The position numbers were made by a program, and so were the translations under genes. From a virus (lineage: Duplodnaviria; Caudoviricetes), in the IMG/VR virus record IMGVR_UViG_3300030389_003077, positions 1 to 61,182 of that record: a stretch of DNA of 61,182 nucleotides. The stretch is one strand, 5' to 3'. A model generated the notes under the pieces. It searched no databases and was not told where the DNA came from. It worked only from the letters and a program-made list of their open reading frames with translations. Of the stretch, positions 5,500-57,247 are shown one piece after another; positions within the stretch are counted from its first letter, which is position 1, and each line of letters starts with the position of its first letter.

Positions 5500-5773
5500 A
5501 CCTTTCAGCAAAAGAACCCTTAAAGTCCTTTTTTTCTTCTATTAAATTTTCTCCTTCCTTAATTCTATCTTCTAAGTTTTTTATTCCTAAAAGAATCTCT
5601 TGACAATCTTCAAAACATTCTCTCTTTGCTTTTATAGCTTGTCTTCTCTTAGCATCATCTTCTTCTATCAAAGGTTTGCTTATCTCTTCTATAAGAAGAT
5701 CTATAGCTCCTTTGCTAGCTTCTATTAATCTCTCTAGAGTGTCAAGTGCATAGTTTTTATTCTTCATATACAC
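5486..5773 (-). CDS. Putative terminase small subunit
   Basis: Small helical protein overlapping the TerL start, ends GSFAERYAKK; assignment is positional. Confidence 0.5.
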   Translation of the reverse strand: MYMKNKNYALDTLERLIEASKGAIDLLIEEISKPLIEEDDAKRRQAIKAKRECFEDCQEILLGIKNLEDRIKEGENLIEEKKDFKGSFAERYAKK

Positions 5774-14641: not shown

Positions 14642-14649
14642 CAAATGTA
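14642..14649 (-). promoter_or_regulatory. -7 element TACATTTG (divergent pair, leftward)
   Basis: TAnnTTTG in intergenic gap upstream of 14609. Confidence 0.65.
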
Positions 14650-14679
14650 ATGATAATTTTTTAATTATAATAAAATTAT

Positions 14680-14687
14680 TATCTTTG
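14680..14687 (+). promoter_or_regulatory. -7 element TATCTTTG (divergent pair, rightward)
   Basis: TAnnTTTG 20 nt upstream of ATG 14708. Confidence 0.65.
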
Positions 14688-14707
14688 ACCTAATTTAATC
14701 TAAGTCA

Positions 14708-15031: not shown

Positions 15032-15032
15032 T

Positions 15033-35978: not shown

Positions 35979-38900
35979 TTATTCGTCTTTTAATATATTT
36001 ATGTTATCCTGATGATAACGATCAATACCTCTTTCTTCAGCTATAGATATTAAAAGATTACTCATACCAGCCTTTCTTAATATATCTCTTATGTCTTCAC
36101 CTGTTATGTTATTTAACCTAGCAGCACTAATTATATCAGCAAATTTATTCAATACTTCGTCTGCTCTAGAGTCATAATCTTCAGATCCCTTGGTTATAAA
36201 TCCTCTTAGCTTACTCTCATCTTTCATAACATCTTTACCTACTATATCAATAAGTTCTTGTTTTGCATATCTAGATTTAAAGTAAGTATTCTTGTTTAAA
36301 TTTATCCTGTTTATTCTAAGTCCAAATAATGCTAATATTTCGTAAACTGGAACAAGTTCAGAGTCCTCTTCAAATATTGATTTAGCTATTCTAACGCCAG
36401 ATCTAAGAGTACCTGGTGCTATTCCTTTACCTACAAATTCTATACTTTTAAAAAGCTTTGTTAAGTTATCATCACTTTGATTATAAACTTTACCACCTTT
36501 ATTATTGTAAGCATTCTGCACTAAAGTTAAGGTCATTTCTTCACTAAGGAATGGCTCATAAACAGCCTTTAAAACTCTCATAAAACTTTCTTCACCAGGT
36601 TCTGTTTTAATATCTGTAAAAGCTAATCTAAATAAGTCCTTTATGTAGCCCACACCAGATACCCTGGAGAAGTTTATATAATCTATATATCTGTCCTTGT
36701 ATTTTTGACCTTTAGAATATCTAGATTCTAACTCACCTTTTCCAGTATAGGATAACAACCCTTTAGCATCCCAGCTTGGTAAAACAGTTCTTATCTTTCT
36801 AGTTTCAATTTGCTCATCATCCTCGTCCTCTCCAAAGAAAGACTCCATAAAGAACTTAGCTGTATACAACTGCATGCTTTGAAGAAGAGTAAAAGTAGCT
36901 AGAGTACCAGATAGCCTTGCTACTCCAGATTTTCTTAGAACTGGGTTATCACTAGATATTTCTTTTAATCCAAGAAGTATTGCGTTTTTAGAGTTACGAA
37001 CAGACTCAGCCTGGAAAGCAACAAAAGAACCAACAATAGGAGATCTACCTATTGTTCTTATTATTCTAGGTATCTCGTTATAATTAGGATACAAGTTTCT
37101 TACGTTTTTAGCTGCAGTGGCTTCAGCCTCTTCAACAGAGAATCCAGCTTCCAAGTATCTAGCTTTTTCAGACAAGAATCCGTAAGCTTTCCAAACGTTA
37201 TCCTCAGCCTGATAAGTCTCTGTAGCCCAGTTATCAACTTTTTTAGCGTATTTATTTATAGTTCCTATGACACCTTTATCTGTAAAGTCTTTATTCTTAA
37301 CATATTCAGATATACTAAAATTACTATTTCTAACTTGCTCAGATATAGATTGTATCTCACTAAGTGTTGCTGAGTTATCTATAACTCTAAGCTTTATTAG
37401 CTTTTCTCTAAACTCTTTTACCTGAGGATCAGTCATATTACTTACAGACTTTATAGCTTCTTTAGCAAAGTACTTAGAATCTTTAAAGCTAACGTGACCA
37501 TTCATTAAAGCAAAAGAAGTGTTACCAACTAGGTTAATAAAGTGAGTAGGTAAGTTCCAAACTGTTGCTGCTTTTTTGTTAAGAAGTATAGCCTCCATGT
37601 AAATACTTAGCCACCAAGGGTAACTAACCTTTTCTTGGAATCTATTTAACACGTTAAACATTTCATTGTCTACACGCTTACCTTCTAGTAATCCAAACTT
37701 TTTACCCTCTAATATATTTTCTGCAACATCAGGGACAGTTTGATCAAATATAAATTTATCTTGACCAATTTCTAAAAGATCTTTATACATTCTTTCAGCA
37801 CCTATAGTTCTTGCTATTTTAGATACTGTGTTATGATAATTAAATACAGGATTATCTATCTCACCCCACAAATCTCTTATCTCTTGAGGAACTACTTTTC
37901 TTTGTTTAAATATAGATGTAACTCTGTTTAAACCATCTAAAGAAAAAGAACCAGATGAGAATCTAGCAAAATCTCCTTTTGTAATAAGTTCGTTGTAAGC
38001 ATCAGTTACTTTACTCTGTATTTCAGATTCTGATAAGTCAGTATTTTCTCCTGCAATTTCTTGATATAAAAAGTCTTTAGCTCTTTGTTGTATATCAGTA
38101 TCTGTTTGTTTCCAGTTTTTACTTTCAAACTGCTTGTAAGATCTAGTAATATAAAAACCTCCATTAGCCTCTACAGCAAAAGATGCTTGACCTCTTATTA
38201 ATCCCTCGTCTATAAGTGTTCTACTAAGTGAGTCAATGTGTCTTCTCATCTCCATTAGTATACCTTTCATGTTGCTTTTATCAGACTCCATGGCTTTTAT
38301 TTTATTCACGTCACCAAGAAGCTCATTCAATTCAGAGTCAGACATCTGATACTCTTTATTGACATCAGCAAACCTTTTCATTATCTCATTAGCTCTGTAA
38401 AGCTCTAAAGCTACATCACCCTTTCTAAGAGTCATTAACTCTTTTATTTCTTTATCTGTGTGAGTTCCCTTAGGCTTTAATAGTAATGTAGAAAGTCTAG
38501 CGTCTATTTCCTTTTGACCTGTTAGTGTAGTGTACCCAGGAATATTTTGAAGCCAACCTCCAAGCTTGTAATCTAAATCTATAACAGATTGAGATACATC
38601 AAATATTAAATTACCTAATCCTGAAGTGTATACCACAGTCTCATCTTCTGGTTTAGCAACCTGTTCCCTTAAAGAATAACTTGAGTCTTCTACAAAATCG
38701 TTTACTAAATTGCTATTGTTTGAAGCAACGTAACCTTTAAAGTTACCAGAGCTCCAATACTCTCTAACATTCTTAAAGTTGTCTTTTAGTATGTTTATCA
38801 TACTAGACTCTGTAATCATATTAGACTCCATACCCTCAGCAGCATCACCTTCTTTATTTAAAACCCTTTTCTTTTTATTGGCTAATTCTTCTTTTGTAAA

Positions 38901-41900
38901 ATACTTCTCTTTATATCTGTCTTTTACCTCTTCATTACTTTCGTAATTTTCTGTAAACAACTTTTCTTCAACAATTAATAAACCATCCTTACCTAAAAGA
39001 TTATCTTTAATATATTTTATTTGAGGTGCTCTATTGTCGTTTATAAACTGAAATACCATTGATTCATGTACAACGTCAAACTTTTTATCAGGATTGTAAG
39101 CCTTAATGTTATCATAACCCTCCATAAAAGCCTCTGGTATATATTCATTTCCATCAACGGAACTTTTCTTGTCAGAGAATTTTTTCATCTCTGGATTAGG
39201 GTCTAACGTTGTTGTTTTTATTTTACCATCACTAACTCCAGAAATAGCCTTAGCCCAGGAGTTTTCAGATCCACCAATATCTAAAACAGAAGCTTTTTTA
39301 TTTTTAAATAAATTCGTTATAGTAGTACCAGTTATAACTTGTATCTCTTTATGTCCAGGTATACTCTTAGCTATATGATCATCGAAGTTACCTCTGTGCT
39401 TGACGTATTCCTCTATGAACTTTATTCTATCTTCTCTTTTTATATCTATATAGGGCTCGTACTTAACGTTAGAGAATCCGTATCTACCAGCAGTAACGTC
39501 AGAGAAAAATTGCTCAAAAGCTTTTCCAGTTTTTTTAGAAGGCTGAATTGATTGCTCTCTTATAGTTTCATCTCCTTCTTTTATTTCAGTTTCACCTACT
39601 TCAAATTGAACTCCACCAACATTAATCTTTCTACCATTTACTAAAGCACCAGATAAGTTATCAGCCAAGTCTTTTAGAGACATTTGTTGTAAGTCTATAG
39701 ACTCAACATTTTCTACTGGAGATACTATATTTAGTCTCTCTAGTATAGCCCTTATAACTTCTCTAATCTTTGTTAGCTTAGACTGTTTATTTACAAAGTG
39801 ACCATAGGCAGCGTCAGCCATCATCTCAGCAAAAGCCTCTTCTATTTGACCCTCTCTAGAAAGATTAGAATAAGCTGGATTCGATTTAACCCAATCAAGA
39901 TAAGACCCCTTCACTCTTCGACCATCCTTTATAACACGTCTTTTCATGTTGCTCTGTTCAACCTCAGATTCTATTCTTTTATATAAAGCAGGGTCAGTCT
40001 TCTTTATAAAGTCAACCATAGGATGAATAATCTCATGGAACAAAGTGTTTCCACGAACAGTCTCAAGGTTTACATATATGGTCTTGTCAGAACCTCTAAA
40101 AAAAGATGACCTTCTTTTAGAAGGATCTTGACCTATGGATTTTAATTGTTCAGCCATTGCGTTACTATTTTTAACAATAGTAACATTAAGATTACCTATA
40201 GAGTTAAGTAGCTTAAGTGCAAAGCCTAAAGCTTCTTTTCTTGCCTCACTAACACCTTCAAATAAATCTGAATCATATTTAGGATTACTCTCATCAAGTT
40301 TATGTACATTATCTGAATTGAAGTTTTTACCATAACTAGTTTTTTCAAAGTTCAACCCTGAATGTATTGATGCTTTTCTTCCGTTTACATTTATAATTGT
40401 TAAAGCATCTTGCTTTCTAGCGTCAGGACCTTTTGTATCTTTTTTAGGATCTAAAGGCACAACTCTACCATCGCCATACATAAGACCAGTCTTAGAGGAA
40501 AAAACAGATTCTTGTTGAAACTGGTTACCTATATTTAAAGCTGAAGCATCATTTAAGCCTGTAACCAAAAGACTTTCCTCTGAAACGTTATTATAAACAC
40601 CCTGAACGGTATAGTATGTAGCACCAGCCTCATCCAATACAGCTTTAAGGTTTTCCATTCTATCTGCCTTCTCACCATCAGTTACACCCTCTCTTTCTGA
40701 TGTTAGTATATGATAATCATTGGCATCTAAAACATCTTGAGGGATCTGGTCAAGGTTGTCTTTAGGTGTTTTTATAAATAATTTATTGTTAGCCTTAAAT
40801 AAGTCCTCTTTGTTTACACCCTCAGACATTTTAGCTTCGTAATCTTTTAATGCGTTTCTAGCCTCAGATACGTTCTTAAACTTAGCAGTGGTTATGTTAG
40901 AAGTTTCAGCTTTATTATTATTAAATATAATACCAGACTTATCTTGTGATGTTACTATTACTGGCTTTCTCTTACCTTTATCTATTTGACTTTTAACACT
41001 ATCGTACTGCTCTTGAGTGGTTATCTCTGTAGCTTCTACAGATTCAGTTATGTTAGATCCACTAGTAACTTGATCAGTCATAGGATTTATAACCTGGATA
41101 CCTTTATCATTTAAAACAGCTCCAAGTCTTTCTCTTATACTTTCAGTTCTATCTGTGACGTTGTATTTAGATTTTTTACCCTCAGCTTCCATCTGATTAA
41201 CAGCATCATTTAAAGCTGATATTTCATCTATAGATATGTTTGATTTTTTCTTTGAATCTAAAACGTTTAACATATCATTAACAACCTTCTCTTTCTCCTG
41301 CATTAATCCTCTAGCCTCAGCAGCGTCAGGTGCGTAGAACCCAAATACAAGTTCATCTAGTAAAGATTGAGCTTCAGCATTCATGGAGGCATCCATCCTT
41401 ATCTTTCCATCTCTAATTTGTTGGGATATACCTTCAGTCTTAACAAATCTTAAAGCTTCAGCTCTATTCATTTGCTTGGTAGACTTATCCTCCATTATAA
41501 AGTTAACAACTATATTATTGTTAAGCTTTTTATAATCTGCATCTGTGAAGGCTTTACCTAAATATCCTACACTATGTATACCACCACCCATGGCAAAACC
41601 AATAAGGAAAGAGTCAGATAATCTAACTAAAACTTCCTCTGGTTTTATTTTTGTTCTTTTACCAGTTTTAGGATCAATAGTAGTGGAGGTTCCAGTTATC
41701 ATATTTGTTATGGTGTTAGATACCTCAGTTTTAAACTCAGAACCACCCTCTCGTATACCTTTAGCAAAGAAACCATCTGTAATGTTTTCTGCTATTTCTT
41801 TAGCACTTTGCTTTACTTTTCCTCTACCGATTAGTGCTCTAGCATCATTAACTATATCTAACGTGGTTTTTTCAAAGACAGCTTCAGCAGCACCAGTTAA

Positions 41901-43304
41901 AGCAGCGTTAAGATATAAACCAAAATTCCCGACATCTATCTCGCCCTTCATTCTTTGTTCTTTCAAACTTAAAGATTGAACCCCAGCAGTTGATAGACCT
42001 ATAGCTCCTAAAGATATATTTTGAGCAGCCTTTGGTCCAAACCTTGTAGCTAAAGCAGGACCAGATGCGTACATACTAAATATTAAAGGCATAGTCTCTG
42101 ATATAGCATTACCACCTTGCTTAAAAGCATCAAGAAAGTTTCCTTTTAGTATAGAGCTTGTCATACTATCTTCCTGATACAATCTAGTTCTTTCTCTTAT
42201 TTTATCTGCAGCTTTTTTAACTTTACTTGAAAGAACACCACCTCTTATATTATACATAACCCTCTCGTAATTACTGTTAGCACCACCTATTAGTAACCCC
42301 TCAACTACTTCAAGAGGACCTGCTACTAACAAATCTAAAGCACCAGCAACAAAACTTTCTGCCCAGTCACCAATAAAACCACCAGATTCTACTTGTCTAT
42401 CATATAAGTCTTGAAGAGTTTGCAAACCTTCATCATTGTCAGGGTTATCAATAGTAACAGTAGTTTTACCATCAACAACATCATCTATAAACTCTTTATT
42501 AAATAAGTTTTTTTGAAGTTCGTTAACACTTACACTTTCGTTGTTAACCTTTATATTATCTACAGGCATATAAGATAAATCAATACCTCTAGCTTCTATC
42601 TGCTCCATTCTAGATTCTGGAGCAATGTTATCCATAACGTCTTTTATTTGTGCGTTATGAAATTGTTTCTCAGCCTCGAATATTTTGTCTGAGTTTTTGG
42701 CTAAATAACTATCAACTACATTAGAGTATTCTGTATATAACGAAGGATCTTTTATGTAATCTTCTCTTTTTCTATCGTAATCAGTTATTTTCTTATATAT
42801 GGAACCGAAAAAACCAAGATCTTCATCATCTTTCTCAGTGTATTTTTCTCTTTGTTTTTGTAACTCTTTCTTTATAAACTCAGCATCAAGGACTTTATTT
42901 ATATCAACACCTTGACCTTCGTAAAAAGGTCTTTTTGATTCTCTCTCTAAGTCTAGTGCGTCTTGACCTTGCTCTGAAGATAGTCGTCTTTTTCTTATAC
43001 TCTCATTTAGAGATTCTATGTAATCCGAAGAAGAAGTTGAAGGCTCCGATTCCAATACAGAATCCTCTGTAGTCTTTTGAGAAATTGCGTTTTGAAATGC
43101 TGAAGAATCTTTTTTTTTTACATCACCCCAAGCTGACTGAAAAGTATTAAGGTCTGTTGTTTCAAACAAACCTTTACTTTTTCCTAAGTCGTAAAGTTTA
43201 CTTTGTATGTCAACATCAGACTCTTTAAACTGGTCTAAAGTTGTTTTTGATGTTAATATACCTTTATCTACATAAAGATTATAAAGTTGTTCTAACCTAT
43301 CCAT
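35979..43304 (-). CDS. Giant polyvalent (probably ejected) virion protein with SAM-lyase-like, zincin and CmoA-like domains
   Basis: 2441 aa; GVY..SEES..FQQESV (SAMase-like), HEIIH..EEAFAE (zincin), FDDHIAKSIPG..VLDIGGSE (class I SAM-binding); last gene of the ejected-protein block. Confidence 0.8.
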   Translation of the reverse strand: MDRLEQLYNLYVDKGILTSKTTLDQFKESDVDIQSKLYDLGKSKGLFETTDLNTFQSAWGDVKKKDSSAFQNAISQKTTEDSVLESEPSTSSSDYIESLNESIRKRRLSSEQGQDALDLERESKRPFYEGQGVDINKVLDAEFIKKELQKQREKYTEKDDEDLGFFGSIYKKITDYDRKREDYIKDPSLYTEYSNVVDSYLAKNSDKIFEAEKQFHNAQIKDVMDNIAPESRMEQIEARGIDLSYMPVDNIKVNNESVSVNELQKNLFNKEFIDDVVDGKTTVTIDNPDNDEGLQTLQDLYDRQVESGGFIGDWAESFVAGALDLLVAGPLEVVEGLLIGGANSNYERVMYNIRGGVLSSKVKKAADKIRERTRLYQEDSMTSSILKGNFLDAFKQGGNAISETMPLIFSMYASGPALATRFGPKAAQNISLGAIGLSTAGVQSLSLKEQRMKGEIDVGNFGLYLNAALTGAAEAVFEKTTLDIVNDARALIGRGKVKQSAKEIAENITDGFFAKGIREGGSEFKTEVSNTITNMITGTSTTIDPKTGKRTKIKPEEVLVRLSDSFLIGFAMGGGIHSVGYLGKAFTDADYKKLNNNIVVNFIMEDKSTKQMNRAEALRFVKTEGISQQIRDGKIRMDASMNAEAQSLLDELVFGFYAPDAAEARGLMQEKEKVVNDMLNVLDSKKKSNISIDEISALNDAVNQMEAEGKKSKYNVTDRTESIRERLGAVLNDKGIQVINPMTDQVTSGSNITESVEATEITTQEQYDSVKSQIDKGKRKPVIVTSQDKSGIIFNNNKAETSNITTAKFKNVSEARNALKDYEAKMSEGVNKEDLFKANNKLFIKTPKDNLDQIPQDVLDANDYHILTSEREGVTDGEKADRMENLKAVLDEAGATYYTVQGVYNNVSEESLLVTGLNDASALNIGNQFQQESVFSSKTGLMYGDGRVVPLDPKKDTKGPDARKQDALTIINVNGRKASIHSGLNFEKTSYGKNFNSDNVHKLDESNPKYDSDLFEGVSEARKEALGFALKLLNSIGNLNVTIVKNSNAMAEQLKSIGQDPSKRRSSFFRGSDKTIYVNLETVRGNTLFHEIIHPMVDFIKKTDPALYKRIESEVEQSNMKRRVIKDGRRVKGSYLDWVKSNPAYSNLSREGQIEEAFAEMMADAAYGHFVNKQSKLTKIREVIRAILERLNIVSPVENVESIDLQQMSLKDLADNLSGALVNGRKINVGGVQFEVGETEIKEGDETIREQSIQPSKKTGKAFEQFFSDVTAGRYGFSNVKYEPYIDIKREDRIKFIEEYVKHRGNFDDHIAKSIPGHKEIQVITGTTITNLFKNKKASVLDIGGSENSWAKAISGVSDGKIKTTTLDPNPEMKKFSDKKSSVDGNEYIPEAFMEGYDNIKAYNPDKKFDVVHESMVFQFINDNRAPQIKYIKDNLLGKDGLLIVEEKLFTENYESNEEVKDRYKEKYFTKEELANKKKRVLNKEGDAAEGMESNMITESSMINILKDNFKNVREYWSSGNFKGYVASNNSNLVNDFVEDSSYSLREQVAKPEDETVVYTSGLGNLIFDVSQSVIDLDYKLGGWLQNIPGYTTLTGQKEIDARLSTLLLKPKGTHTDKEIKELMTLRKGDVALELYRANEIMKRFADVNKEYQMSDSELNELLGDVNKIKAMESDKSNMKGILMEMRRHIDSLSRTLIDEGLIRGQASFAVEANGGFYITRSYKQFESKNWKQTDTDIQQRAKDFLYQEIAGENTDLSESEIQSKVTDAYNELITKGDFARFSSGSFSLDGLNRVTSIFKQRKVVPQEIRDLWGEIDNPVFNYHNTVSKIARTIGAERMYKDLLEIGQDKFIFDQTVPDVAENILEGKKFGLLEGKRVDNEMFNVLNRFQEKVSYPWWLSIYMEAILLNKKAATVWNLPTHFINLVGNTSFALMNGHVSFKDSKYFAKEAIKSVSNMTDPQVKEFREKLIKLRVIDNSATLSEIQSISEQVRNSNFSISEYVKNKDFTDKGVIGTINKYAKKVDNWATETYQAEDNVWKAYGFLSEKARYLEAGFSVEEAEATAAKNVRNLYPNYNEIPRIIRTIGRSPIVGSFVAFQAESVRNSKNAILLGLKEISSDNPVLRKSGVARLSGTLATFTLLQSMQLYTAKFFMESFFGEDEDDEQIETRKIRTVLPSWDAKGLLSYTGKGELESRYSKGQKYKDRYIDYINFSRVSGVGYIKDLFRLAFTDIKTEPGEESFMRVLKAVYEPFLSEEMTLTLVQNAYNNKGGKVYNQSDDNLTKLFKSIEFVGKGIAPGTLRSGVRIAKSIFEEDSELVPVYEILALFGLRINRINLNKNTYFKSRYAKQELIDIVGKDVMKDESKLRGFITKGSEDYDSRADEVLNKFADIISAARLNNITGEDIRDILRKAGMSNLLISIAEERGIDRYHQDNINILKDE

Positions 43305-46176: not shown

Positions 46177-49100
46177 TTATTTATTCCCACTAAGTTCGCT
46201 AACATCAACGTCTGCATTGGCAGCGTAAAGATTAAACTTGTATTTAGAGAAGTACATGTTTTTATCTTCTGGTTCAGAGGATAAGGTTGTCATCATATAT
46301 TGACCTTTTATTCTCTCACCTTCTATATTGCCTTTTTGAACTATAAATAAGAAACCTTGACTTGGAAGAGACTGACTGTCAAGCTCTTTGTTTTTTACAA
46401 AATTAACAATATTACTAGATACAGAATAAGGGTATCCAAGGAATAACGTTGTACCATCATCTTTTTGAATGTATAACCTATTATCTGTGCTAATAACACT
46501 TGATGTAGTTTCAGGAGCAGATCTTTCACAAATAAAAACATCTCCAACATTTGTAGAACTAGCTTCAACGCTTACGGAACTTAAATCAAACACAGGATCT
46601 TGCTCACTTATATATCTAATAACATACTCAGCACCAACAACCATGTCTTCAGTTCTTATTTGAGCATTAGTTTTTGCTGATTCTTTATCAAATGTTCCAT
46701 TATATGATAAAATAAATCCAGTGCTATTATTAATATTTTTAGCAAAACCTAAACCTAAAATCTCAGAACCATCACCATGATCAACATTATCATCATAAGT
46801 ACTATCCACATCAACATCAGATTTAGAAAAAGGTATATTAGAATAATGTATTCCTTCTTTTGTTTTAAAGTCTATAACCTCCATGTGATTGCCATCCAAA
46901 GCCATGCTAACATGACTTGTTAACTTAAGAATAGTATTTGATAGTATAGCTTTAACTATTTTATACTTGTAAATATATTTAGCCTCTCCCTGTATATTTC
47001 CATGGGCGTCTATTTTATCTGCACTATATCCATATATTTTAACAAAGTCTCCAACCTTGACATCTTTAAAAAATTTAGTATCAACACCTCTTATTAAGGT
47101 TTCAAAACCACTAGGCTGTTGATAATTTTCAATTTTACCATCCACCCTTTTAAACTGTATACTTGTTTTTATAGTAGAATCGTAGCCATTTTTAAGTTGA
47201 GGACCATAAAGCGTTTGACCCATGTTGGTTGTCATAGAAGCAAACAATTTAGAGTCACCCTCTAGTGATAAAGCGTTGTAAGTTTTTACTGTTGATGGTT
47301 CTAAATTAAATGGGAACTGTATTAAAGATCCATATTGATTATCATGAAAATAATTAAACCTGTTTTGGTATCTAGTGCTTTCTGTACCATAACTTGTATA
47401 ATCATCCATGTTATAATCATAAACCTTTTGATAGTTTCTATCGGTAGTATTGTGCTTAAATAGCTTACCATTTTTAAAAGATATAAACTGCTTGCCAACA
47501 CTAGCATAATAATCAGGATAGTAATCATAAAAAGATGTCCACTTATTTATATCCTCATTAAAAGCTATTGTTTTACTTTCAAAAATTATTTCTGTTCTCA
47601 AGTTTTGATAAGAGGCATACTCGCCATCCCAAACGTTAATATCAGACTGCCAAGATCCACCCTCTTCGGCTTCAATACTTGGAAAGGTTACTATGTACTC
47701 GTTATACTTATGATCGTATCCCGCTACTAAATTAAAGCTGATAAAACTTTTATTTTCTGGGTCGTATATAACGTACATCTCACCAAGGTCTCTGAAGTAA
47801 TCTTTCATGCCGTTATCAGATATAACAGTAAGACCATCAGCAGAAAGTCTAAGAACAGCACCTCTTTTAACGTCTACAAAGTAAAACTTATTACCAGCCT
47901 TAACAACACTTTCTGGTTGCACGCAACAACCAAAGTCTCCAGCATAAAGTTGAACGTAGTTATCTATAATATTATTTGATAAAGATACTAGACCGTCACC
48001 TGAAGCTGTATTAAGTATGTCTTTACCCACTAAAACTCTACCAACTTTATTCTCATGAAATATCATTAAATCGTCATTCCTAGTGCTTAAAAACTGTATA
48101 GAACCAAAATCCTTATTGTAATCAAAGTAAGGTACGTTTGCTAAATTAAAATTAGACAAACCATTTACAGACCCCGTACTAGAGTAAGCTTCTGAATAAA
48201 ATACAGAGGATTCTAATCTTCTCTCTGAAGCTTTATTATTTATAACATTTATTCTACCTCTATTGTAGTGATTCGTGTTATGAAAGTCATTTAAATAATA
48301 ATCCTCTGCAAAAAAAACAATATCATTAGATCCATCGCTAGATGTTGGCATTGTTCTAGGCTTAACGTAAACATCCCCAGCAGGTAGAGTATTTAACAGA
48401 GAAGGGGAGTCTGTAAGTTTATCACCTGTGTTTGACGAAACAAAAAATCCTAATATATTTTTAGCCTCACCAACCGATCTTTCTAAGTTTAATTCAGTAT
48501 CAAAATAAAATTCAGAAGTTTGATCTTTCTCGTTACCTGAGTGTCTTCTAGATTCCGTACCAGCAGCTATTATTGGTTGCTTGTCTCCAATCTCATAATA
48601 CACGTTGAGTTCTTCACTAGCCTCTTTTTTTGGTCTATATATTTCTACAAATAAACCTTCATATCCAGTGCCAGAAACTGACGATGAAAGTGAGCTTTGG
48701 TGAGCAATGCTTACAGTATTTCCAACCTCATCTTCAACTGCAGTTGCTTCAGGATTTGGAACTCTAATGTAAAAACCTGAATCATCACCATTTGGAGTAA
48801 CAGTTATTGACTCTTCATCATCTCCAATATAAAGATCAGATCCAGATATTTCCAAGTCTATGTACTCTATAAACCTTAAAGGCTCTGCCGAAGTATTAGG
48901 CTTATAGCTAATGAATCTAACTCTATCTCCAGGGACAAATTGATAATCTATTAAAGAATTTGAAACCTCGTTATAACTAAAATCTCGACCTTTTAATGAT
49001 TGTAATCCTAGATAAACTTGAGTATCTTCACCAGTACCTGGCTTAACATTTATGATACTAATCTGTATAAACTCATCCACAGTATTATTACCTGTGTAGC

Positions 49101-51489
49101 ATAATTGATAGCTAGTAGCCCAAATAGGAGGTCTATTAAATATGGAATAACTAAAACTTGTTGTTCTATTTAAGCCTATAGCATCTATACCTTCTGTATA
49201 AAATTTATTGTAAGCTCTAGAGCCATTAATATTTTCGCTATATTTTGGAGCTACATTTACAAAAGAACATCTATTTGTTTCGTCAAAATAAGATATTCCA
49301 AAACTATGAAAAGCACCAGTTTTGAAAGTGCTTCTACCAGCGTTACCAGATATAAACTGAGAATTGTTAGTTATTTTTGGCTGGTCTTTTGAAAAATTTA
49401 TACCACTAAAAAGAAATCCAGCATTGTCATTTGCGTATTGAAACACAACTTTTAGTCTTTTTGTGTTAGAATCGTAATTAGCAGAAACTGTTCCACTAGT
49501 GCTACCACCAGAAAATTCAGACACACCAACACCACTATCTATAAGAGATTCTAGAATTTCACCTACCTGATCTATAGTTGTAACATTTGTAACATCAGCA
49601 GATATGTTAAAAGCACCATTCCTTGTTATGTCACCACCAAGTCTTTTCCTTTTATAAGACCAAGAATAATTTAACTCAATAGTTTGTTGAACATTATCTT
49701 GTAGATCTATAGAGGATAAATCAAAAAACTGTCTATGTTTTGTTTTACCACCAGTACCCCCTAAATGTTGTTGAAAAAAAGGCTCACCATCATTATCGGT
49801 AGACGTATTTATTATTGGTATATCATCAAAAGATGAGGTTAGAGCAGAATTAACGGGTATAAAAGTAGAACCCATAATCATACTGGTATTATCATAACCC
49901 TCAACAACATTACCGTAAGCAAGTCTATTGTTAGACAATAATGTTTGAGCTTTAGCTAATTTTGGAACTGCGTCAAAAAGTTTATTAGAATCTTGCTTGT
50001 CTATAAATGGATATGTTCCGTCATTAAAAAAATCAATACTAGATACAATGTTAGAATAATTGTAAGATTCATCGTTAATTAAATCATTTTTTAATTTTTT
50101 AAGATGATTTATGAAGTTGTTAGGTATTGTATCTACTAAAAAAAACTCTCCATCGTTTCCTTTTCTACCTACAATTTCTATATTTTTTACATCAGAGACA
50201 GTATCCTTATAGGTGATTTCCAAAACATTGTCTATATTTTGATAATCTAAAACACTAACAACAGAGTTTAAAGCAAAGTTATTATCTAAGCTTATATCAG
50301 ATATACCACTATAAGAGCTAAATCCATCATCTTGGTGGAGGTATCTATACTTAAACTGAAACATGTTGTCAAGTATATTATTTGTAGAAACAGTACTATC
50401 TTTTTTTGATTCAACTGAAGGTCTAGTTTCTGGTTGAATTTTCACAACATCAAAGTAAGGATTTTTTTGCTCTATATTTCCAAAACTTATTAAAGGCGAA
50501 TAAGCGTCATGTGGATTCGCTTCAATCAATATTCCCTTTAAAGCAGCAGAGCTTCCAGCCCAAGGACAATCTGTAACAACCCCTGAAACATACTCATCAT
50601 CAAGTAGTAATCCTACTGTTAAACCGCTACCACCTTGCTCTCCATTGTCGTTATCAGAGTCACTACCACTAATATTACCATAGGTAGGATCAATACCTAC
50701 AACATTAGTTTCAAAATTTACATCAGTAACCTGATAAATATAAGGGAAAGGATTCCCAACTTCATTAGTTCCGTAAATAGGTAAAAAATCACCAGTTCTA
50801 AGGTCAGGTATTGTTTCAGAAAGACTGTTAATAGTAATGACATTTCCTTGAAGGGATGTTGATCCAGAAACCGTAGTAAATCCTTCTCGTGGTATAACTT
50901 TTGGTATTACACCCTCAACTTCAGCGTAACCATTAAATCCAGGAAATGATGGGTCAGTAGAAGCGTATACATAATCGCCTTTTTTAAACTTATCGTCTGG
51001 ATCCCTATGTTCACCTATAAAAATTGTACTAGTATTATTTCTGTAATAAGTATCTCTAAATTGAAATTTAGGGTTTTTTATATTTAACTCGTTTTTTTTA
51101 GCTAACTCTACATTTATTTTTCTAGGTCTATTAAGATTATCAGTCCAGTATAAAACATCATCAACCTTTGTTATACCTGTTATTAAATGATTTTGATCAT
51201 AGTTTAAAACAGAACTATACTGTCCAGAGCTGGATGGTCTACCATCTTGATATATAGTTTTTATAGAATCCAACATTAAGTCATACTCAAGTATAGCATC
51301 ATATTTTGATGAATTTGCTATATCATGAATAAAGTAATAAACTCTATTTTTTGGCTTATCCTCATAAGAACCTATACAAACATAAGAAGGATCTATGGAC
51401 GGAGTTTCAGTAGGTCTTACTATTGCATTTAGCTGTTCTAAATCAAATTCTGGACGTCTATTTTGATATAATTTTGAAGAATCTGCCAT
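46177..51489 (-). CDS. Tail nozzle/muzzle ('stabilisation')-like protein, main part
   Basis: CIGSYED..RVYYF, LYWTDNLNRPRKIN, QFKYRY, NRLAYGN, FVDVKRGAVLRLS, WTSFYDY motifs. Confidence 0.75.
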   Translation of the reverse strand: MADSSKLYQNRRPEFDLEQLNAIVRPTETPSIDPSYVCIGSYEDKPKNRVYYFIHDIANSSKYDAILEYDLMLDSIKTIYQDGRPSSSGQYSSVLNYDQNHLITGITKVDDVLYWTDNLNRPRKINVELAKKNELNIKNPKFQFRDTYYRNNTSTIFIGEHRDPDDKFKKGDYVYASTDPSFPGFNGYAEVEGVIPKVIPREGFTTVSGSTSLQGNVITINSLSETIPDLRTGDFLPIYGTNEVGNPFPYIYQVTDVNFETNVVGIDPTYGNISGSDSDNDNGEQGGSGLTVGLLLDDEYVSGVVTDCPWAGSSAALKGILIEANPHDAYSPLISFGNIEQKNPYFDVVKIQPETRPSVESKKDSTVSTNNILDNMFQFKYRYLHQDDGFSSYSGISDISLDNNFALNSVVSVLDYQNIDNVLEITYKDTVSDVKNIEIVGRKGNDGEFFLVDTIPNNFINHLKKLKNDLINDESYNYSNIVSSIDFFNDGTYPFIDKQDSNKLFDAVPKLAKAQTLLSNNRLAYGNVVEGYDNTSMIMGSTFIPVNSALTSSFDDIPIINTSTDNDGEPFFQQHLGGTGGKTKHRQFFDLSSIDLQDNVQQTIELNYSWSYKRKRLGGDITRNGAFNISADVTNVTTIDQVGEILESLIDSGVGVSEFSGGSTSGTVSANYDSNTKRLKVVFQYANDNAGFLFSGINFSKDQPKITNNSQFISGNAGRSTFKTGAFHSFGISYFDETNRCSFVNVAPKYSENINGSRAYNKFYTEGIDAIGLNRTTSFSYSIFNRPPIWATSYQLCYTGNNTVDEFIQISIINVKPGTGEDTQVYLGLQSLKGRDFSYNEVSNSLIDYQFVPGDRVRFISYKPNTSAEPLRFIEYIDLEISGSDLYIGDDEESITVTPNGDDSGFYIRVPNPEATAVEDEVGNTVSIAHQSSLSSSVSGTGYEGLFVEIYRPKKEASEELNVYYEIGDKQPIIAAGTESRRHSGNEKDQTSEFYFDTELNLERSVGEAKNILGFFVSSNTGDKLTDSPSLLNTLPAGDVYVKPRTMPTSSDGSNDIVFFAEDYYLNDFHNTNHYNRGRINVINNKASERRLESSVFYSEAYSSTGSVNGLSNFNLANVPYFDYNKDFGSIQFLSTRNDDLMIFHENKVGRVLVGKDILNTASGDGLVSLSNNIIDNYVQLYAGDFGCCVQPESVVKAGNKFYFVDVKRGAVLRLSADGLTVISDNGMKDYFRDLGEMYVIYDPENKSFISFNLVAGYDHKYNEYIVTFPSIEAEEGGSWQSDINVWDGEYASYQNLRTEIIFESKTIAFNEDINKWTSFYDYYPDYYASVGKQFISFKNGKLFKHNTTDRNYQKVYDYNMDDYTSYGTESTRYQNRFNYFHDNQYGSLIQFPFNLEPSTVKTYNALSLEGDSKLFASMTTNMGQTLYGPQLKNGYDSTIKTSIQFKRVDGKIENYQQPSGFETLIRGVDTKFFKDVKVGDFVKIYGYSADKIDAHGNIQGEAKYIYKYKIVKAILSNTILKLTSHVSMALDGNHMEVIDFKTKEGIHYSNIPFSKSDVDVDSTYDDNVDHGDGSEILGLGFAKNINNSTGFILSYNGTFDKESAKTNAQIRTEDMVVGAEYVIRYISEQDPVFDLSSVSVEASSTNVGDVFICERSAPETTSSVISTDNRLYIQKDDGTTLFLGYPYSVSSNIVNFVKNKELDSQSLPSQGFLFIVQKGNIEGERIKGQYMMTTLSSEPEDKNMYFSKYKFNLYAANADVDVSELSGNK

Positions 51490-51491
51490 TT

Positions 51492-54400
51492 TTATATAAT
51501 TTTTGTCATTCTTAATGGAGCTCCTGAGTAAATTTTAGCCACAGATGAAGCGTAACTATCTCCTTGTTCGTTAGAAGATATTTTTTCTCCTATTAGTTTT
51601 ATGTTTATAGGGTTTTCATTCATCCACTCATTATTAGAAGTTAAGTTGTAATCACTTAAAATTAAATTATTAATAATTGACCACTCTTTGCTTGGCGTAC
51701 TATCATTTAAAATAACATTAGATCCGTATTGATTAACAGCAAATTCCCAACCTCTAGATGGACCTCCCTGAACTGTAATTTCAAACTGTAAACCAGATGA
51801 TATATCTGTGCTGATTGATGGTCTAAGTAATTCTGATAAAGCAGGAGACTGATCATCAAAAGTAGTATTTGAATCAAAATTAAGTATTTTGAATAAAAAA
51901 GTTATATATCCATGATCTTCAGTTAGAAAACTATAACGATGAGTGTGAGGTATTTGAGAAACATTAGAATCATGATTAGAACCAAAATCTGAATTAGAAC
52001 AATGTGCTATAAATACACTTGGAGTTGTAATTGTTGATGGGGTAAGAAGATTTGATTTTGAAAATAAACTAACATTGAGCTTGTTAGGTGCAAAAATAGT
52101 TGTTACCTCTTCCTCAGAAAATTCTGAAAACTCTGGTATTAAAGTGTTTCTAAACAATAGATTTAAATGTCCTGCATCAAAACTAAAAATATTTCTTCCT
52201 TGTTTATCTAAATTAAAAAGGTCTGCTCCAATACCTGAACCTAAAATATCTCCACCAGTTAGGGTAAATCTATAAGTAGAACTTAAAGGGTCATCTATAA
52301 TTGTTTCACTATTTGAAAGCAAGTCTAACTGATTTTCTAAATTTTTTATTGTATTTTGTTGAGATAATAATTTTTGTTGTAGCTCTGTGGTGTCATTATT
52401 AAATTTAGAAACTAACTTATTTAAAGTATCTTGATTTTGACTAGAATGAAAGGTTAAATCTTCTATTATAAGTGGGTCATCATCTGAAAGAATAGCTCTC
52501 ATAGAACTAGTTATCAAATCAAAAAGACCTAAAAAGTTAACAACATCTCTTTCTAATTCCTCATTTTGTTGTTTTAAAAATTCTATTTCTAAAGCTTGAC
52601 TTATGTCAATGTTTAAATCACCTACATCTAAAGAAATTTCTGACCCAGAATCTATAAAATTATTAAAAGTTGATGTAGATATATTAACATTAGTTGGCTT
52701 ATTAAATAAACCAATATTAGAAATAGATGCTCTTGTTGGGAAAGAAAGAACATTATTACTAGATATAGACTGATCAACACTTTGAATTAATTCTCCCTTA
52801 GGGCTTATAACTAAGGTTAAATCCTGACCTACTAAGCTTGGTTCCTGCTCTACTCTAAGTAATACTAAAAATTCACCTTCAGTCCTACCAAAAATTATAG
52901 AACCATCAACTAAAACAGACCCTCCTTTTGAATCTAAAATTTCAAGATTAAAACCACCATCACCTTGTTTTGAAATAACTGAGGCTTTAAAAATATAATC
53001 TCCATCGGTAAGGTTAGAACCCAAATTTTGATTAACCGTAGAAGTTGATGTAGGGTTACTAAATGGTGCTATTTCAATACTATCACCTTTAGCACCTGAA
53101 AGACCTACTCCAAAGTTTAAGGGTTCTGAAGAAGTCCAATTATTTGATCCGTCAGTAAAGTCTCCATTTACAACTAAGTTAGTTAAAACATTTACATTTT
53201 GAAGTTTTGTAATTTGATTATTAAGATCTGCATTAATTGATTGTAGTTCTGCAATCTTATCTATCATATTATTTACATCGTCTTGCGTAATCCCTTGAAT
53301 TTGATTTGCCAAAGCTTCTTCAAGTTTGTCTCGAGTAACCTTAATTCCTTGAGATACCTCAGATATTTTTTGATTAACAAAGGTTAATTCAACACCATAT
53401 TCAGTTAAATCTCCAGCAGTAATGTTAATCGCCTCACTTGATATTGTATTAAGGGCTGTTTCAAACTGTTTAGTTAAACTATTGACACCTGCTATAATTT
53501 TATTTTTTTCTTCAGTCAATTCAAAAGCTAACTTATTTTTATCTTCAATATCTTGTTCTAAAGATAAAATTAAATTTTCTTTTTCCTCTAAATCTATTTT
53601 TAGATTATCTACTCTAATTTTCAGTTCCTGCTCTTGTAATTCAGCTTCCTGTAAATCTTGAAGATATTGGTCGTTTTGACTAGTTAATTCTGTTAATTGA
53701 TCCCTAAGGGTTTTAACGCCATTAGTTAAAGTTTCTGTAGTAAATCCTAAATCACTAATAACAGTATTTGCCTGTTCAAATTCTTGTTCTGTTATAGTTA
53801 ATTCAGCTTGTATTTCATCAATATCTTCTTGTGTAGGAGCATTTTGTAAATCATTCTTCAGTTTCTCAATTTGATTAATTATATTTGAATAACCTGTATA
53901 ATCTAGTGTTGATCCGTCAGGTAAATTTAAAAAAGTACCTAATTTATCTTGAGCCTCACTGAGTGCATCACTTGCTTGATTGAGTTGATTAGTTAAATTT
54001 TGTTTATCTTGTTTTAGGTTTTGTATGCTAGCTACTATATTATCAACTGTAGCACTTGATAGACCAAGAGCGTTATTAATTTTTTGCAACTCTTGTTGGT
54101 GTTTTTCTTCTAAAGTATTAATATCATCTTGCAACTTTTGAATCTGACCTTGTAAATCTTCATTTTGAATTTCAAGTTCAGCTATAGTTACTCCTTCATT
54201 AAAATTATTAACTGTTGAAGATGTTTGTCTTATTTCTATAGATACACCACTAACATAATCAAGCTTAGAATTAGTTGACTCTCCAGCTTCAAGTTTTTGT
54301 CTAACCTCTTCTTCACTAGTTCCTAAGCATAAATTAAAAGATACTGGGCTTTGAATAGAAAATTCTATTTTATTTGTAGAGGCTTTAAGTTCAGATAATC

Positions 54401-56063
54401 TAAGATTTCTAGGTGAAAAAGAATCAGTATCTGTTATAGCCTCTAAATGAAAAAAGTTGTAGTTATTATCTGCTATAAAAGACCAACCATTAGACCCTAA
54501 AAATGCTGTATCATTGCTTTTGGGTATAGGAAACTCATTAGTACCAGATACAAATTTTAAGCTTCCAGTTCTAAGAGACATAAACTGTTCATTTCTCCAT
54601 TCAACTAAATATCTTTGACCTTTAACTATATTTGCTGGAAAAGAAACTCTTTCTTCAGAGGTCATACTCCCTATAGTAAGTTGAGATCCAACATCAAAAG
54701 CTCCAGGCTGTGAGTTACCATCAAATAAATGAGTTATAGAAGATCCTGATATAGCAAAAGGACTATTTGCTGTTGGTCTACCATCTTCGTTTAAAAAAAT
54801 ACTCTCAGAGTCGTAACTTTCTAATAAAAAATAATCACCAGAGTTTACTGATTCAGTAATTAAATTTGCAGCTCTACTACCTCTTAGCTGGGTAGATGTT
54901 GTAAACTCAGTAGTAACACCTTTAGAAATACCAGATGTTGATATTATTACAGGGTTTGCAAAACCAGGGGATAATACTTTACCTTTAAAGTCAGTAAATT
55001 GTTCTATAAGATAAGTAGGTATACTATTTTGACCACTGTCAAACTCATAGGGATCTCCAGTATTAAATTTATCAGTTGCACTTATATCTACAAACAAAGA
55101 AACATCATGATGAGTACCTATATCTTGATGACTAAATAGTTTTACAGGTTGACCATCTTGAGCAGATATGGGTTCAACACCCTCAACAGTAATAACATAT
55201 TGAGTTTGGTCTTCTGATTGCTCTATTATTCCAATAGGAGAATCACTATCTATTACAGGGTCTATTGGAGAAATATTTTCATAATTAGGTTCACTAGATA
55301 TTGTGAAATCTACAGTGGATCCTATAACTAAATCACCATTTGCTTGTATATGTAATTGACCATTACTAGGATTATCTTGTACAGTAGAAGACCATGGAAT
55401 ATCAGGCTCTTGAGAAAGTTCACTTTTAAAGTCTAACCTAAATTGTATGTTTGGTTCATCTGCAGTTATAGTAATTATAATTTGACCAGGATTTGGGGAG
55501 TTAGGGTGAAGGTCAACAAGAGGCACATCCTCATTAACACTTTCAGGTTCAAAACTTATAGAAGAACTAGCTGTACTAGTAGCACCAGTGTAAATATCTA
55601 TAATAGGTATACCTGAACTAAGAGTCCCATCAAAAGAATTAAATCTTTCATATAAAAAAAGAGCCGTTTGAGTTGCAGGATTACCCCCAAACCAAGTAAG
55701 ATTTTCTTCCTGGTAGAGTGGTATTAAATTGTTTTGAGCATCTTGAGAGTATATACTAAAATTGTGTCTCTGACCTTTAACTTCGTATCCACTAAAAATT
55801 ATTCTTTGCACATAAACAATTTCTTCAGGTTCAGGAAAATTAACACCGTTATCATCTATTATTTGAACTAGAGATACATTTTCGTTATAAAAAGGGTATA
55901 CAACCTCAGTGGTTCCCTCTATGTTTTCTAAAGACCCAGAGGTGCCATCAGAAGAAGCTACATTTCTTATGTTGACTGCATGTCTATAATCACCATTTTC
56001 TATATACCTAGGGTCTAAATCTTTATTCATACCCCCTGTAAATATTCTCTTGTCTTGTGCCAT
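51492..56063 (-). CDS. Large tail-associated protein: nozzle-like N-terminus, coiled coil, CBM-like domain
   Basis: GGMNKDLDPRYIENGDYRHAVNI start, ~330-aa heptad region, NLVVNGDFTDGSNNW. Confidence 0.6.
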   Translation of the reverse strand: MAQDKRIFTGGMNKDLDPRYIENGDYRHAVNIRNVASSDGTSGSLENIEGTTEVVYPFYNENVSLVQIIDDNGVNFPEPEEIVYVQRIIFSGYEVKGQRHNFSIYSQDAQNNLIPLYQEENLTWFGGNPATQTALFLYERFNSFDGTLSSGIPIIDIYTGATSTASSSISFEPESVNEDVPLVDLHPNSPNPGQIIITITADEPNIQFRLDFKSELSQEPDIPWSSTVQDNPSNGQLHIQANGDLVIGSTVDFTISSEPNYENISPIDPVIDSDSPIGIIEQSEDQTQYVITVEGVEPISAQDGQPVKLFSHQDIGTHHDVSLFVDISATDKFNTGDPYEFDSGQNSIPTYLIEQFTDFKGKVLSPGFANPVIISTSGISKGVTTEFTTSTQLRGSRAANLITESVNSGDYFLLESYDSESIFLNEDGRPTANSPFAISGSSITHLFDGNSQPGAFDVGSQLTIGSMTSEERVSFPANIVKGQRYLVEWRNEQFMSLRTGSLKFVSGTNEFPIPKSNDTAFLGSNGWSFIADNNYNFFHLEAITDTDSFSPRNLRLSELKASTNKIEFSIQSPVSFNLCLGTSEEEVRQKLEAGESTNSKLDYVSGVSIEIRQTSSTVNNFNEGVTIAELEIQNEDLQGQIQKLQDDINTLEEKHQQELQKINNALGLSSATVDNIVASIQNLKQDKQNLTNQLNQASDALSEAQDKLGTFLNLPDGSTLDYTGYSNIINQIEKLKNDLQNAPTQEDIDEIQAELTITEQEFEQANTVISDLGFTTETLTNGVKTLRDQLTELTSQNDQYLQDLQEAELQEQELKIRVDNLKIDLEEKENLILSLEQDIEDKNKLAFELTEEKNKIIAGVNSLTKQFETALNTISSEAINITAGDLTEYGVELTFVNQKISEVSQGIKVTRDKLEEALANQIQGITQDDVNNMIDKIAELQSINADLNNQITKLQNVNVLTNLVVNGDFTDGSNNWTSSEPLNFGVGLSGAKGDSIEIAPFSNPTSTSTVNQNLGSNLTDGDYIFKASVISKQGDGGFNLEILDSKGGSVLVDGSIIFGRTEGEFLVLLRVEQEPSLVGQDLTLVISPKGELIQSVDQSISSNNVLSFPTRASISNIGLFNKPTNVNISTSTFNNFIDSGSEISLDVGDLNIDISQALEIEFLKQQNEELERDVVNFLGLFDLITSSMRAILSDDDPLIIEDLTFHSSQNQDTLNKLVSKFNNDTTELQQKLLSQQNTIKNLENQLDLLSNSETIIDDPLSSTYRFTLTGGDILGSGIGADLFNLDKQGRNIFSFDAGHLNLLFRNTLIPEFSEFSEEEVTTIFAPNKLNVSLFSKSNLLTPSTITTPSVFIAHCSNSDFGSNHDSNVSQIPHTHRYSFLTEDHGYITFLFKILNFDSNTTFDDQSPALSELLRPSISTDISSGLQFEITVQGGPSRGWEFAVNQYGSNVILNDSTPSKEWSIINNLILSDYNLTSNNEWMNENPINIKLIGEKISSNEQGDSYASSVAKIYSGAPLRMTKII

Positions 56064-56065: not shown

Positions 56066-57247
56066 TTACATTTTAGGAGATTGCTTGAATGCTTTTCTAG
56101 ATACAGCCATTGCTGTTTCTTTATTAAAACTCATCATTCTAGCTCTTGCTAATCTTTTCTCGTTATAGTAGGCTCTTTTAGCCATTTGTTTTTCGTTGGC
56201 AGGAATGCCACGTTTTCTTTGTACATACTTATAATATATATAACAACGTAAAGCCTCTTCACAAAACTTATGTACTTTAGGTCCATCACCAACAACACCT
56301 AGTTGTAATAACTCCTGATTAGTTAACACTATTTTTTCTACTGTGCTAGCACCTACAGTTTGACTTTTATTCGTATCAAAACTACTATTATTAAGAGCTA
56401 AAGGCACTGCAGTTAAGTCACTGTATGCTAAAGTTACAAATCTGGATTTTGTGGCTTGAGAAGCTTTTATTTTAGTATCAATAGGAGATATTCTAAGATC
56501 AGGATAACCCTCGTTTATTAAAGTAGAAAACTTTTCTGCTATTGTTCCTGAATTATCATTTGTTTCAAACTGTATTTGTAAGTTAGTAGTTGGAGTGTCA
56601 GTTATAAAAGTAAACGTATGAAACTCTGTTGAGCTACTTGATTTTGGTATTTTTAACGTACAATTAGTATCAATTTGATCTGACTCGTCTCCATCAGCTC
56701 CATTAAAAGTAAACCTTATTACATGATTTTTAGCCTGAACATTGCTTATACCGTCAGATATATACTCCATAAATACGGTTTTACCAGCAATATCTGAAGA
56801 GAAGTTTATAGTGTTATCATTTCTATTTAGCATGTAATATCCTAAATTATTTTTTCCTCCACCCACGCCATACTTTCTACCCATATCAACATGATAATAA
56901 GGGTTGTTCTCGTCATAAGGATCGTCATTTACTTGTGCTGTTACTGTAGCATCTAAAGCTAAGTCAGACTTATAACCTAAAGGGTGAAACTCATCATCAT
57001 CACCCCTGTAACCAATACGCAAAAGTTTAACATAGTCATTTGGTAAAGTAACCTGAAGTGTTGTTGAATCTACAGTCATTTCAGTTGTTTTAACCTCTTG
57101 TTCTGCGTCAAACTTAAGCTCTCTTAATCCTTGTAGAGCTAATAATCTTAATTGATAAATTTGTGCGTCTTTGTCGTAAGACGTATCATCTATCATTAAC
57201 TGAAAGTCATTTACGACTTCATCTATACTTGTATAATCTATTGCCAT
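56066..57247 (-). CDS. Tail ring/adaptor protein
   Basis: LPNDYVKL, EYISDG, VHKFCEEAL, RLARARM motifs. Confidence 0.65.
   Translation of the reverse strand: MAIDYTSIDEVVNDFQLMIDDTSYDKDAQIYQLRLLALQGLRELKFDAEQEVKTTEMTVDSTTLQVTLPNDYVKLLRIGYRGDDDEFHPLGYKSDLALDATVTAQVNDDPYDENNPYYHVDMGRKYGVGGGKNNLGYYMLNRNDNTINFSSDIAGKTVFMEYISDGISNVQAKNHVIRFTFNGADGDESDQIDTNCTLKIPKSSSSTEFHTFTFITDTPTTNLQIQFETNDNSGTIAEKFSTLINEGYPDLRISPIDTKIKASQATKSRFVTLAYSDLTAVPLALNNSSFDTNKSQTVGASTVEKIVLTNQELLQLGVVGDGPKVHKFCEEALRCYIYYKYVQRKRGIPANEKQMAKRAYYNEKRLARARMMSFNKETAMAVSRKAFKQSPKM

Follow-up and report, generated by a model that had tools for sequence, protein, structure and literature searches.

Why would a phage place S-adenosylmethionine (SAM) chemistry inside a giant protein encoded among its virion genes? 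SAM lyases are familiar as small products of the first genes expressed after phage entry. The question is raised by IMG/VR virus record IMGVR_UViG_3300030389_003077 (Duplodnaviria; Caudoviricetes), a marine phage record of 61,182 bp estimated by CheckV to be 97% complete, which was analyzed over its whole length and is called the window below. Its largest gene, on the minus strand at 35979..43304, encodes a protein of 2441 amino acids (aa) with a SAM-lyase-like, a zincin-like and a CmoA-related domain. Our overall reading, which we favor with little more than even confidence, is that of a packaged polyvalent protein that would deliver a SAM lyase, a peptidase and a second SAM-using enzyme. The frame and the three domains at issue are:

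35979..43304, minus strand: giant polyvalent-type open reading frame with a virion module (P0001), 2441 aa, a single uninterrupted frame

40350..40715, minus strand: predicted T3-type SAM-lyase-fold domain (DUF3293 / S-AdoMet_lyase-like), aa 864-985, recognized by Pfam, PDB profile and AF2/Foldseek

39789..40244, minus strand: zincin-like metallopeptidase (MPTase-like) domain, aa ~1021-1172, with His1090-Glu1091-x-x-His1094 and Glu1156

38718..39389, minus strand: CmoA-related class I SAM-dependent domain of a polyvalent-protein subfamily, aa 1306-1529, recognized by Methyltransf_23, PHROG 4752 and PDB profile

A preliminary description of this DNA had aligned part of the frame with the SAMase of phage T3. 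All strings that it quoted are present in the frame where it had placed them, YHILTSER, ADRMENLKAVL, VQGVY, SEESLLV, ALNIGNQFQQESVF and TGLMYGDG being located at aa 864-947 (nt ~40715-40464). The proposed alignment was reproduced by HMMER motif for motif (YVLVSAFR, GCY, TEEKTVRV, EQDCVL and AGLVY in T3), with T3 Glu68 aligned to Glu909 and T3 Gln94 to Gln931. The proposed identity as a SAM lyase was borne out by Pfam, by a PDB profile, by the AlphaFold 2 (AF2) fold searched with Foldseek and by the catalytic residues. DUF3293 (PF11697) matched an isolated 140-aa piece with 26.1 bits at a cut-off of 25, and with 23.8 bits when the whole protein was scanned. In an alignment of the window domain with 22 stand-alone homologues (A2, 23 sequences), 22 members matched DUF3293 and 17 matched S-AdoMet_lyase (best E = 5.7e-9); since the members match both models, the two describe one homologous group. 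Among PDB matches at E ≤ 10, the only meaningful one to the A2 profile was the T3 SAM lyase (7ock/8bb1, E = 1.1e-3). The second of the two matches, a sugar-binding protein at E = 0.29, was regarded as noise. A phmmer match of the lyase piece to glyoxalase III (4lru; 54 residues, E = 0.0094) was treated as chance because it was gone once the family profile was used.

The AF2 model of the domain, built on A2, had a predicted local distance difference test score (pLDDT) of 90.8 and a predicted template modeling (TM) score of 0.83. When it was compared with the PDB, chains of T3 SAM lyase took ranks one to three (E = 3.0e-4, 1.7e-3 and 1.9e-3; TM 0.58-0.60; 138-143 columns) and the next match followed at E = 0.057. 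The predicted fold agrees with that of T3 gp0.3 (7ock, 8bb1) over the whole domain (Foldseek probability 1.00, TM ~0.6) and the motifs come in the same order, although identity is ~17-21%. With E ≤ 1e-3, a structure search of BFVD gave 26 matches. It ranked two pieces of large phage proteins highest, one called 'structural protein' in a Flavobacterium phage and one called 'ART-PolyVal-like'; two other matches, in Vibrio phage Vc1 and in Pectobacterium phage POP72, are annotated as S-adenosyl-L-methionine hydrolase. A tblastn search with the lyase piece against 50,697 phage records gave no match.

The residues point in the same direction. Gly902, Tyr904, Glu909 and Gln931 occupy the positions needed in T3 SAMase (Gly, Tyr, Glu68 and Gln94) and in Svi3-3, and Gln931 is followed by Glu932 and Ser933. 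In Svi3-3, SAM is bound and oriented by the conserved residues Gly56, Tyr58, Glu69 and Gln104, which contact it, and the E69Q exchange nearly abolished activity (PMC7877911; this and the other published sources are drawn on here in part). T3 SAMase loses its activity in the E68Q/Q94A form, and it is a monomeric barrel of nine strands, in contrast to the trimeric Svi3-3 (bioRxiv 10.1101/2023.02.27.530186). With this monomeric form, the objection that an embedded lyase domain would lack an inter-subunit active site therefore does not arise, and by analogy a monomer suits a domain embedded in a polyprotein. Sequence profile, predicted fold and catalytic residues together support the assignment of aa ~864-985 as a SAM lyase domain. 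It would be of T3 type, with every residue known to matter for SAM cleavage kept, and its activity is predicted.

How common is such an arrangement? An exhaustive HMMER search of 1.84 billion representatives retrieved 162 cluster representatives that match the lyase domain at E ≤ 1e-3. Among the 150 of these that were listed, P0019-P0168, which are homologues of window positions 40335-40754 and to which the following counts refer, 106 are at least 1000 aa long, 26 are at most 250 aa and 18 lie between; here, the SAM-lyase-like domain occurs mostly inside giant proteins. Two copies of the lyase-fold domain each were seen in P0025 and P0028. The listed proteins hold 152 domains over which residue columns were counted: Gly in 144, Tyr in 140, Gln in 149 and Ser in 140 domains, and at the position of Glu932 Glu in 119 and Asp in 22. 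The column of the catalytic Glu (T3 E68, Svi3-3 E69) is split, with Glu in 83 domains and Gln in 60, among giant as well as stand-alone proteins.

Because E69Q nearly kills Svi3-3, the Gln forms may have another substrate or may only bind. The split thus hints at more than one substrate class, and three of the four listed proteins that pair a lyase with a CmoA-like domain have Gln at this position. A lyase-fold domain could then cleave another sulfonium compound, either SAM-AMP, which would make it an injected anti-CRISPR, or a modified SAM, for instance carboxy-SAM from the neighboring domain. SAM-AMP is a messenger of type III CRISPR whose signaling has been described in Bacteroides, and the SAM lyase family includes SAM-AMP-specific enzymes that do not cut SAM, one of them phage-borne and fused to a further domain (PMC12255297). 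Relatives of the window phage infect Bacteroidota, in line with SAM-AMP signaling being known in Bacteroides. The window protein itself, however, has Glu909, as do T3 SAMase and Svi3-3, and profile search and fold search alike point to the T3 SAM lyase, not to any trimeric PII-type lyase. We regard a substrate other than SAM as improbable for this domain.

The middle one of the three domains carries HEIIH at aa 1090-1094, the sole HExxH motif in the protein, and EEAFAE at aa 1155-1160. Over 11 aligned giant proteins, that of the window and ten homologues, H1090, E1091 and H1094 are invariant within an invariant F-H-E-x-x-H-P, and E1156, the Glu of I-E-E-A-F-A-E, is near-invariant. The AF2 model (pLDDT 73.3) predicts a helix, three strands forming a sheet, the HExxH helix and a long helix that carries Glu1156. 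This predicted topology of aa ~1021-1172 fits the MPTase layout given by Iyer et al. for polyvalent proteins, with an N-terminal helix, a three-stranded sheet and two C-terminal helices (PMC5512222). From motif conservation and model we consider the region to be zincin-like with moderate confidence; metallopeptidases of this kind are the hub of polyvalent proteins.

The third domain had been likened to CmoA, the carboxy-SAM synthase, on account of FDDHIAKSIPG, VLDIGGSE, LDPNPEM, MVFQFI, LIVEEK and NFKGYVA, which were located at aa 1307-1529 (nt ~39386-38718). It matched Methyltransf_23 with 28.8 bits at a cut-off of 27 and PHROG 4752 'tRNA methyltransferase' with E = 1.6e-13; phmmer with this methyltransferase piece against the PDB gave nothing at E ≤ 1. 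The profile of an alignment with 17 homologues of 214-445 aa (A1, 18 members) had CmoA as its top PDB matches (1im8, 2.7e-9; 4gek, 1.8e-7; 4iwn, 2.6e-7). The next match, at 1.9e-3, was another chain of the same name, and ordinary methyltransferases scored worse. These matches are end-to-end: profile positions 67-287 align with CmoA chain residues 29-242, covering the class I core from the N-terminal cap to the C-terminal motif. The shared elements begin with the cap F-x-D-x-I-x-x-S-[IV]-P and go on with the QF motif, an Arg following it, the E-K motif and, at the C terminus, N-F-x-G. Among solved structures, CmoA is therefore the closest relative by sequence, and to this extent the preliminary claim stood.

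It did not stand as an equivalence. The NCBIfam equivalog model of CmoA, TIGR00740, gave 29.6 bits, far under its cut-off of 193.3; 13 of the 18 A1 members match it weakly and 16 match CpaM. Arg199 of CmoA is the only side chain that contacts the carboxylate of carboxy-SAM (PMC4482062). The HMMER alignment, which is uncertain in the lid region, places Arg199 at a column that varies and adjoins the invariant Lys1477, with no conserved Arg within five residues. Motif I differs as well, reading DLGCSxG in CmoA and DIGGSEG in the window subfamily, which also has an invariant His-Glu pair before QF. Since the equivalog cut-off was missed and the Arg199 column is not conserved, synthesis of carboxy-SAM is a minority reading, which we think unlikely. 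The domain probably performs a SAM chemistry different from that of CmoA, and methyl transfer by means of its own His-Glu pair seems more likely to us than carboxy-SAM synthesis.

The embedding in giant proteins, another difference from CmoA, is a property of the subfamily. Of 44 CmoA-like loci in IMG/VR, 20 belong to the window subfamily, with DIGGSEG and H-E-[SA]-M-x-F-Q-F as signature and without any Arg conserved around Lys1477, and 14 of these lie in frames of at least 2000 aa; the subfamily is found almost only inside giant phage proteins. The other 24 (L024-L047) are small stand-alone proteins of 219-269 aa with CmoA-like DLGCSTG and S-I-F-T-L-Q-F. This stand-alone group resembles canonical CmoA more, and its conserved Arg comes five residues after the Lys aligned with CmoA K198, not directly after it. 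In Maribacter phage Panino (L001), 15 tRNA genes and a tmRNA are annotated at 12471-15234, directly downstream of the gene for a polyvalent protein of 1829 aa that has the CmoA-like domain and no lyase-fold domain.

Could the enzymes act late in the producing cell or inside the capsid, for instance by supplying carboxy-SAM for hypermodification of phage DNA? Such a route is known: a phage CmoA supplies carboxy-SAM to the C5-methyltransferase homologue CmoX, which yields 5-carboxymethylcytosine (PMC12783734), and the gene at 35979..43304 does sit among late genes. Against this, the 61,182-bp record has no match to PF00145, the C5 DNA methylase family of CmoX type, as opposed to 9 of 14 control genomes (CmoB was not searched for). 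The genome thus offers no CmoX-type partner for a carboxymethylcytosine pathway, and this pathway was rejected. The lack of a conserved equivalent of Arg199 and the differences from the small stand-alone phage group also speak against late action, as does the combination of giant protein and virion module, which is the pattern of delivered effectors (PMC5512222). We consider late action very improbable.

Is the pairing of the two SAM domains more than a coincidence? Both are found in one polypeptide in four of the listed lyase-domain proteins, in six of 47 long CmoA-like proteins and, a sister phage (L004) included, at four of the 20 subfamily loci. In nearly all cases the two domains adjoin each other directly; they are separated by at most ~160 residues, except in P0172 (528 residues apart), in the window protein and in L004, and both orders occur. 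Within 8 kb of the CmoA-like genes at the 44 IMG/VR loci no separate SAM-lyase-like gene was present, so that the link exists only as fusions. A complex prediction for the CmoA-like and lyase domains, run without controls, scored 0.00 and has no bearing either way. Taken together, the sequence comparisons are suggestive of a meaningful pairing. The sister phage, an IMG/VR contig of 49,720 bp, has this giant gene as a frame of 2424 codons: both SAM domains lie where they do in the window protein, and the CmoA-like one is 97% identical to its counterpart there.

The relatives P0019, P0021 and P0023 keep the regions corresponding to aa 41-1242 and 1540-2436, and in place of the CmoA-like cassette (window positions 38700-39600) they have other inserts of ~760-1240 residues, in which Pfam recognizes only DUF7178, in one of them. 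Judged from these alignments, the CmoA-like domain is a swapped cassette in the window lineage and a clean example of cargo swapping.

What, then, would bring this cargo into the host? The parts of the protein that flank the cargo, and the neighbors of its gene, are:

40755..43304, minus strand: N-terminal region, aa 1-850, without significant Pfam family, collinear with relatives

35982..38330, minus strand: C-terminal module, aa ~1659-2441, matched by PHROG 22602 and tblastn relatives

46177..51489, 56066..57247, 57250..57975 and 59520..60944: neighbors matching PHROG 'virion structural protein' families

The gene closes a minus-strand block that encodes products assigned to PHROG families of virion structural proteins; portal and large terminase are encoded at 1022..5511. 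Its C-terminal module matches PHROG 22602 'virion structural protein' over aa 1659-2192 (E = 5.6e-28) and is probably the part that places the protein into the virion. In a tblastn search with the giant protein, 10 of the 50,697 phage records matched, all with less than 60% identity. The C-terminal module alone is shared with six Cellulophaga podophage records, including phi18:3, phi19:3 and phi13:2, with the 'ADP-ribosyltransferase' of Pseudoalteromonas phage vB_Pun_Y3, with a Pelagibacter phage and with one further phage. With Panino, only the methyltransferase domain is in common; there it sits in the 1829-aa protein beside virion genes. The closest comparison is with gp123 of phi18:3, a 1935-aa structural protein with 26% identity over ~500 aa of the C-terminal module (E = 2e-25), which is likewise the last gene of a structural block and which is annotated in its record as structural 'based on experimental MS/MS proteomics' (MS/MS, tandem mass spectrometry). 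Unlike the module, the SAM-lyase-like and CmoA-like parts had no reported match in gp123, the tblastn match being confined to query aa 1693-2189. We infer the presence of the window protein in virions from a single line of support, the homology of its C-terminal module to this MS/MS-detected protein.

The N-terminal region gave no significant Pfam family when aa 1-850 were scanned as pieces, and from aa ~41 to 850 it is collinear with P0019, P0021, P0022 and P0023. It includes a Gly/Ala-rich stretch (window positions 42300-41550, aa ~318-576) with two moderately hydrophobic segments, aa 318-341 and 558-576, and in an ejection protein such a stretch could serve to interact with membranes. Searched as a whole, the protein gave nothing at E ≤ 1 with phmmer against the PDB and only a weak CpaM match in the NCBIfam scan, and blastn of the region against the 50,697 phage records gave no match. 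In the Atlas, the named clusters nearest to the protein have LPD23 and LPD38, the latter for the C-terminal module; both are leads only. Just upstream in the same block, the product of 46177..51489 (minus strand, 1770 aa) matches PHROG 14478 'virion structural protein', and that of 51492..56063 (minus strand, 1523 aa) has no PHROG match.

The sequence thus supports a protein of polyvalent type, with its enzyme cargo domains strung between two conserved ends, the N-terminal region and the C-terminal virion module. As in other polyvalent proteins, three distinct enzyme-type domains lie in one polypeptide whose gene stands among virion genes; the earlier suggestion of a polyvalent-type giant protein held up on the virion gene block and the PHROG matches. 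The likeness to the proteins described by Iyer et al. in 2017 (PMC5512222) extends to several unrelated enzymatic domains in one giant polypeptide, a zincin-like HExxH in mid-protein, the position of the gene among virion genes and the swapping of cargo cassettes between relatives. The methylases described there, in contrast, are DNA adenine methylases paired with SWI2/SNF2, whereas that of the window is CmoA-like and of small-molecule type. The available main text of that paper, supplements aside, has no mention of SAM hydrolase, SAMase, S-adenosylmethionine, AdoMet, CmoA or '3293'.

Under the reading that we favor, the giant protein would be synthesized late and enter the virion by way of its C-terminal module, to be delivered along with the DNA. 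Its lyase domain would cleave host SAM to methylthioadenosine and homoserine lactone, and the loss of SAM would starve SAM-requiring defenses, among them type I and type III restriction and the bacteriophage exclusion (BREX) system, when phage gene expression begins or even earlier. By cleavage, the peptidase may set cargo free, and the CmoA-related domain would run a second SAM-consuming reaction. The preliminary description had likewise proposed a co-injected device that would attack SAM in two ways, might be freed by autoproteolysis and would act ahead of phage transcription. Precedent for the effect comes from T3, whose SAMase blunts type I restriction-modification and BREX (PMC7877911; bioRxiv 10.1101/2023.02.27.530186). 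The setting differs: T3 gp0.3 is a 152-aa first-expressed early protein, whereas the window domain lies within a late protein of 2441 aa.

Several points weigh against this reading. S-AdoMet_lyase (PF23780) scored 22.1 bits on the 140-aa piece (E = 1.6e-4), under the Pfam cut-off of 28. For the zincin, HExxH...E is invariant and the predicted topology is compatible, but no Pfam family, peptidases included, matched the region at E ≤ 10, and Foldseek with its model gave no match at E ≤ 1e-3. The best had E = 0.06, in a weak list (E 0.06-0.3) made up mostly of zincins (lethal-factor-type domains, minigluzincins and collagenases). With few copies of the protein per virion, injected enzyme alone may be slow in depleting bulk SAM. 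It is also not obvious how a SAM-using enzyme would cooperate with a SAM-destroying one beside it, and the co-occurrence counts of the two do not represent independent events since the data sets overlap and hold relatives. In the lyase domain itself, Lys879 stands, unlike in T3 gp0.3, where the family has a near-invariant Asn (140 of the 152 domains). Degenerate copies without the Gly, Tyr and Glu occur at the same position in P0022, P0023, P0025 (first copy), P0026 and P0040; two of these five have additionally lost the Gln, and the flanking regions stay conserved. The lyase domain in this lineage is therefore not always under catalytic constraint.

The degenerate sister copies and Lys879 would also fit a lyase-fold domain that is not an enzyme at all and instead binds SAM, binds MetK or serves as a structural spacer in a virion scaffold protein. 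A catalytically dead T3 SAMase still counters BREX via MetK binding (bioRxiv 10.1101/2023.02.27.530186). This binding, however, runs through the free N-terminal tail of T3 gp0.3 (bioRxiv 10.1101/2023.02.27.530186), which the internal window domain does not have. Moreover, the four residues common to active SAM lyases are intact in the window protein, as are Glu932 and Ser933, and its closest full-length relatives P0019, P0020, P0021 and P0024 keep this catalytic set too, with Trp for Tyr in P0021. A non-enzymatic role appears improbable to us, to much the same degree as a different sulfonium substrate or slightly more so.

Beyond the delivery of a SAM lyase with accompanying enzymes, the two SAM domains might form a recurrent injected pair of enzymes, with rewiring of the SAM pool of the host ahead of all phage gene expression. 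One domain would turn SAM into an analogue that is useless or toxic to SAM-dependent defenses, the other would take away SAM or a signal derived from it, and the Glu/Gln split at the key lyase position would mark two substrate classes. We find such rewiring quite unlikely.

In the literature searched, which covered PMC5512222 without its supplements, we found no published description of SAM lyase domains in virion or polyvalent proteins, and no paper naming DUF3293.

In conclusion, our analysis suggests a second way to deploy SAM-lyase chemistry, in which the domain is built into a giant protein whose gene stands among those for the virion. The phage may bring its anti-defense enzymes in with the DNA instead of making them after entry. 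If the domain is active and delivered, DUF3293 would gain an assayable function as a SAM lyase. The work also flags a CmoA-related subfamily that lives almost only in giant proteins. If the reading is true, counter-defense at the level of metabolites would join the repertoire of polyvalent proteins, without having to wait for transcription.

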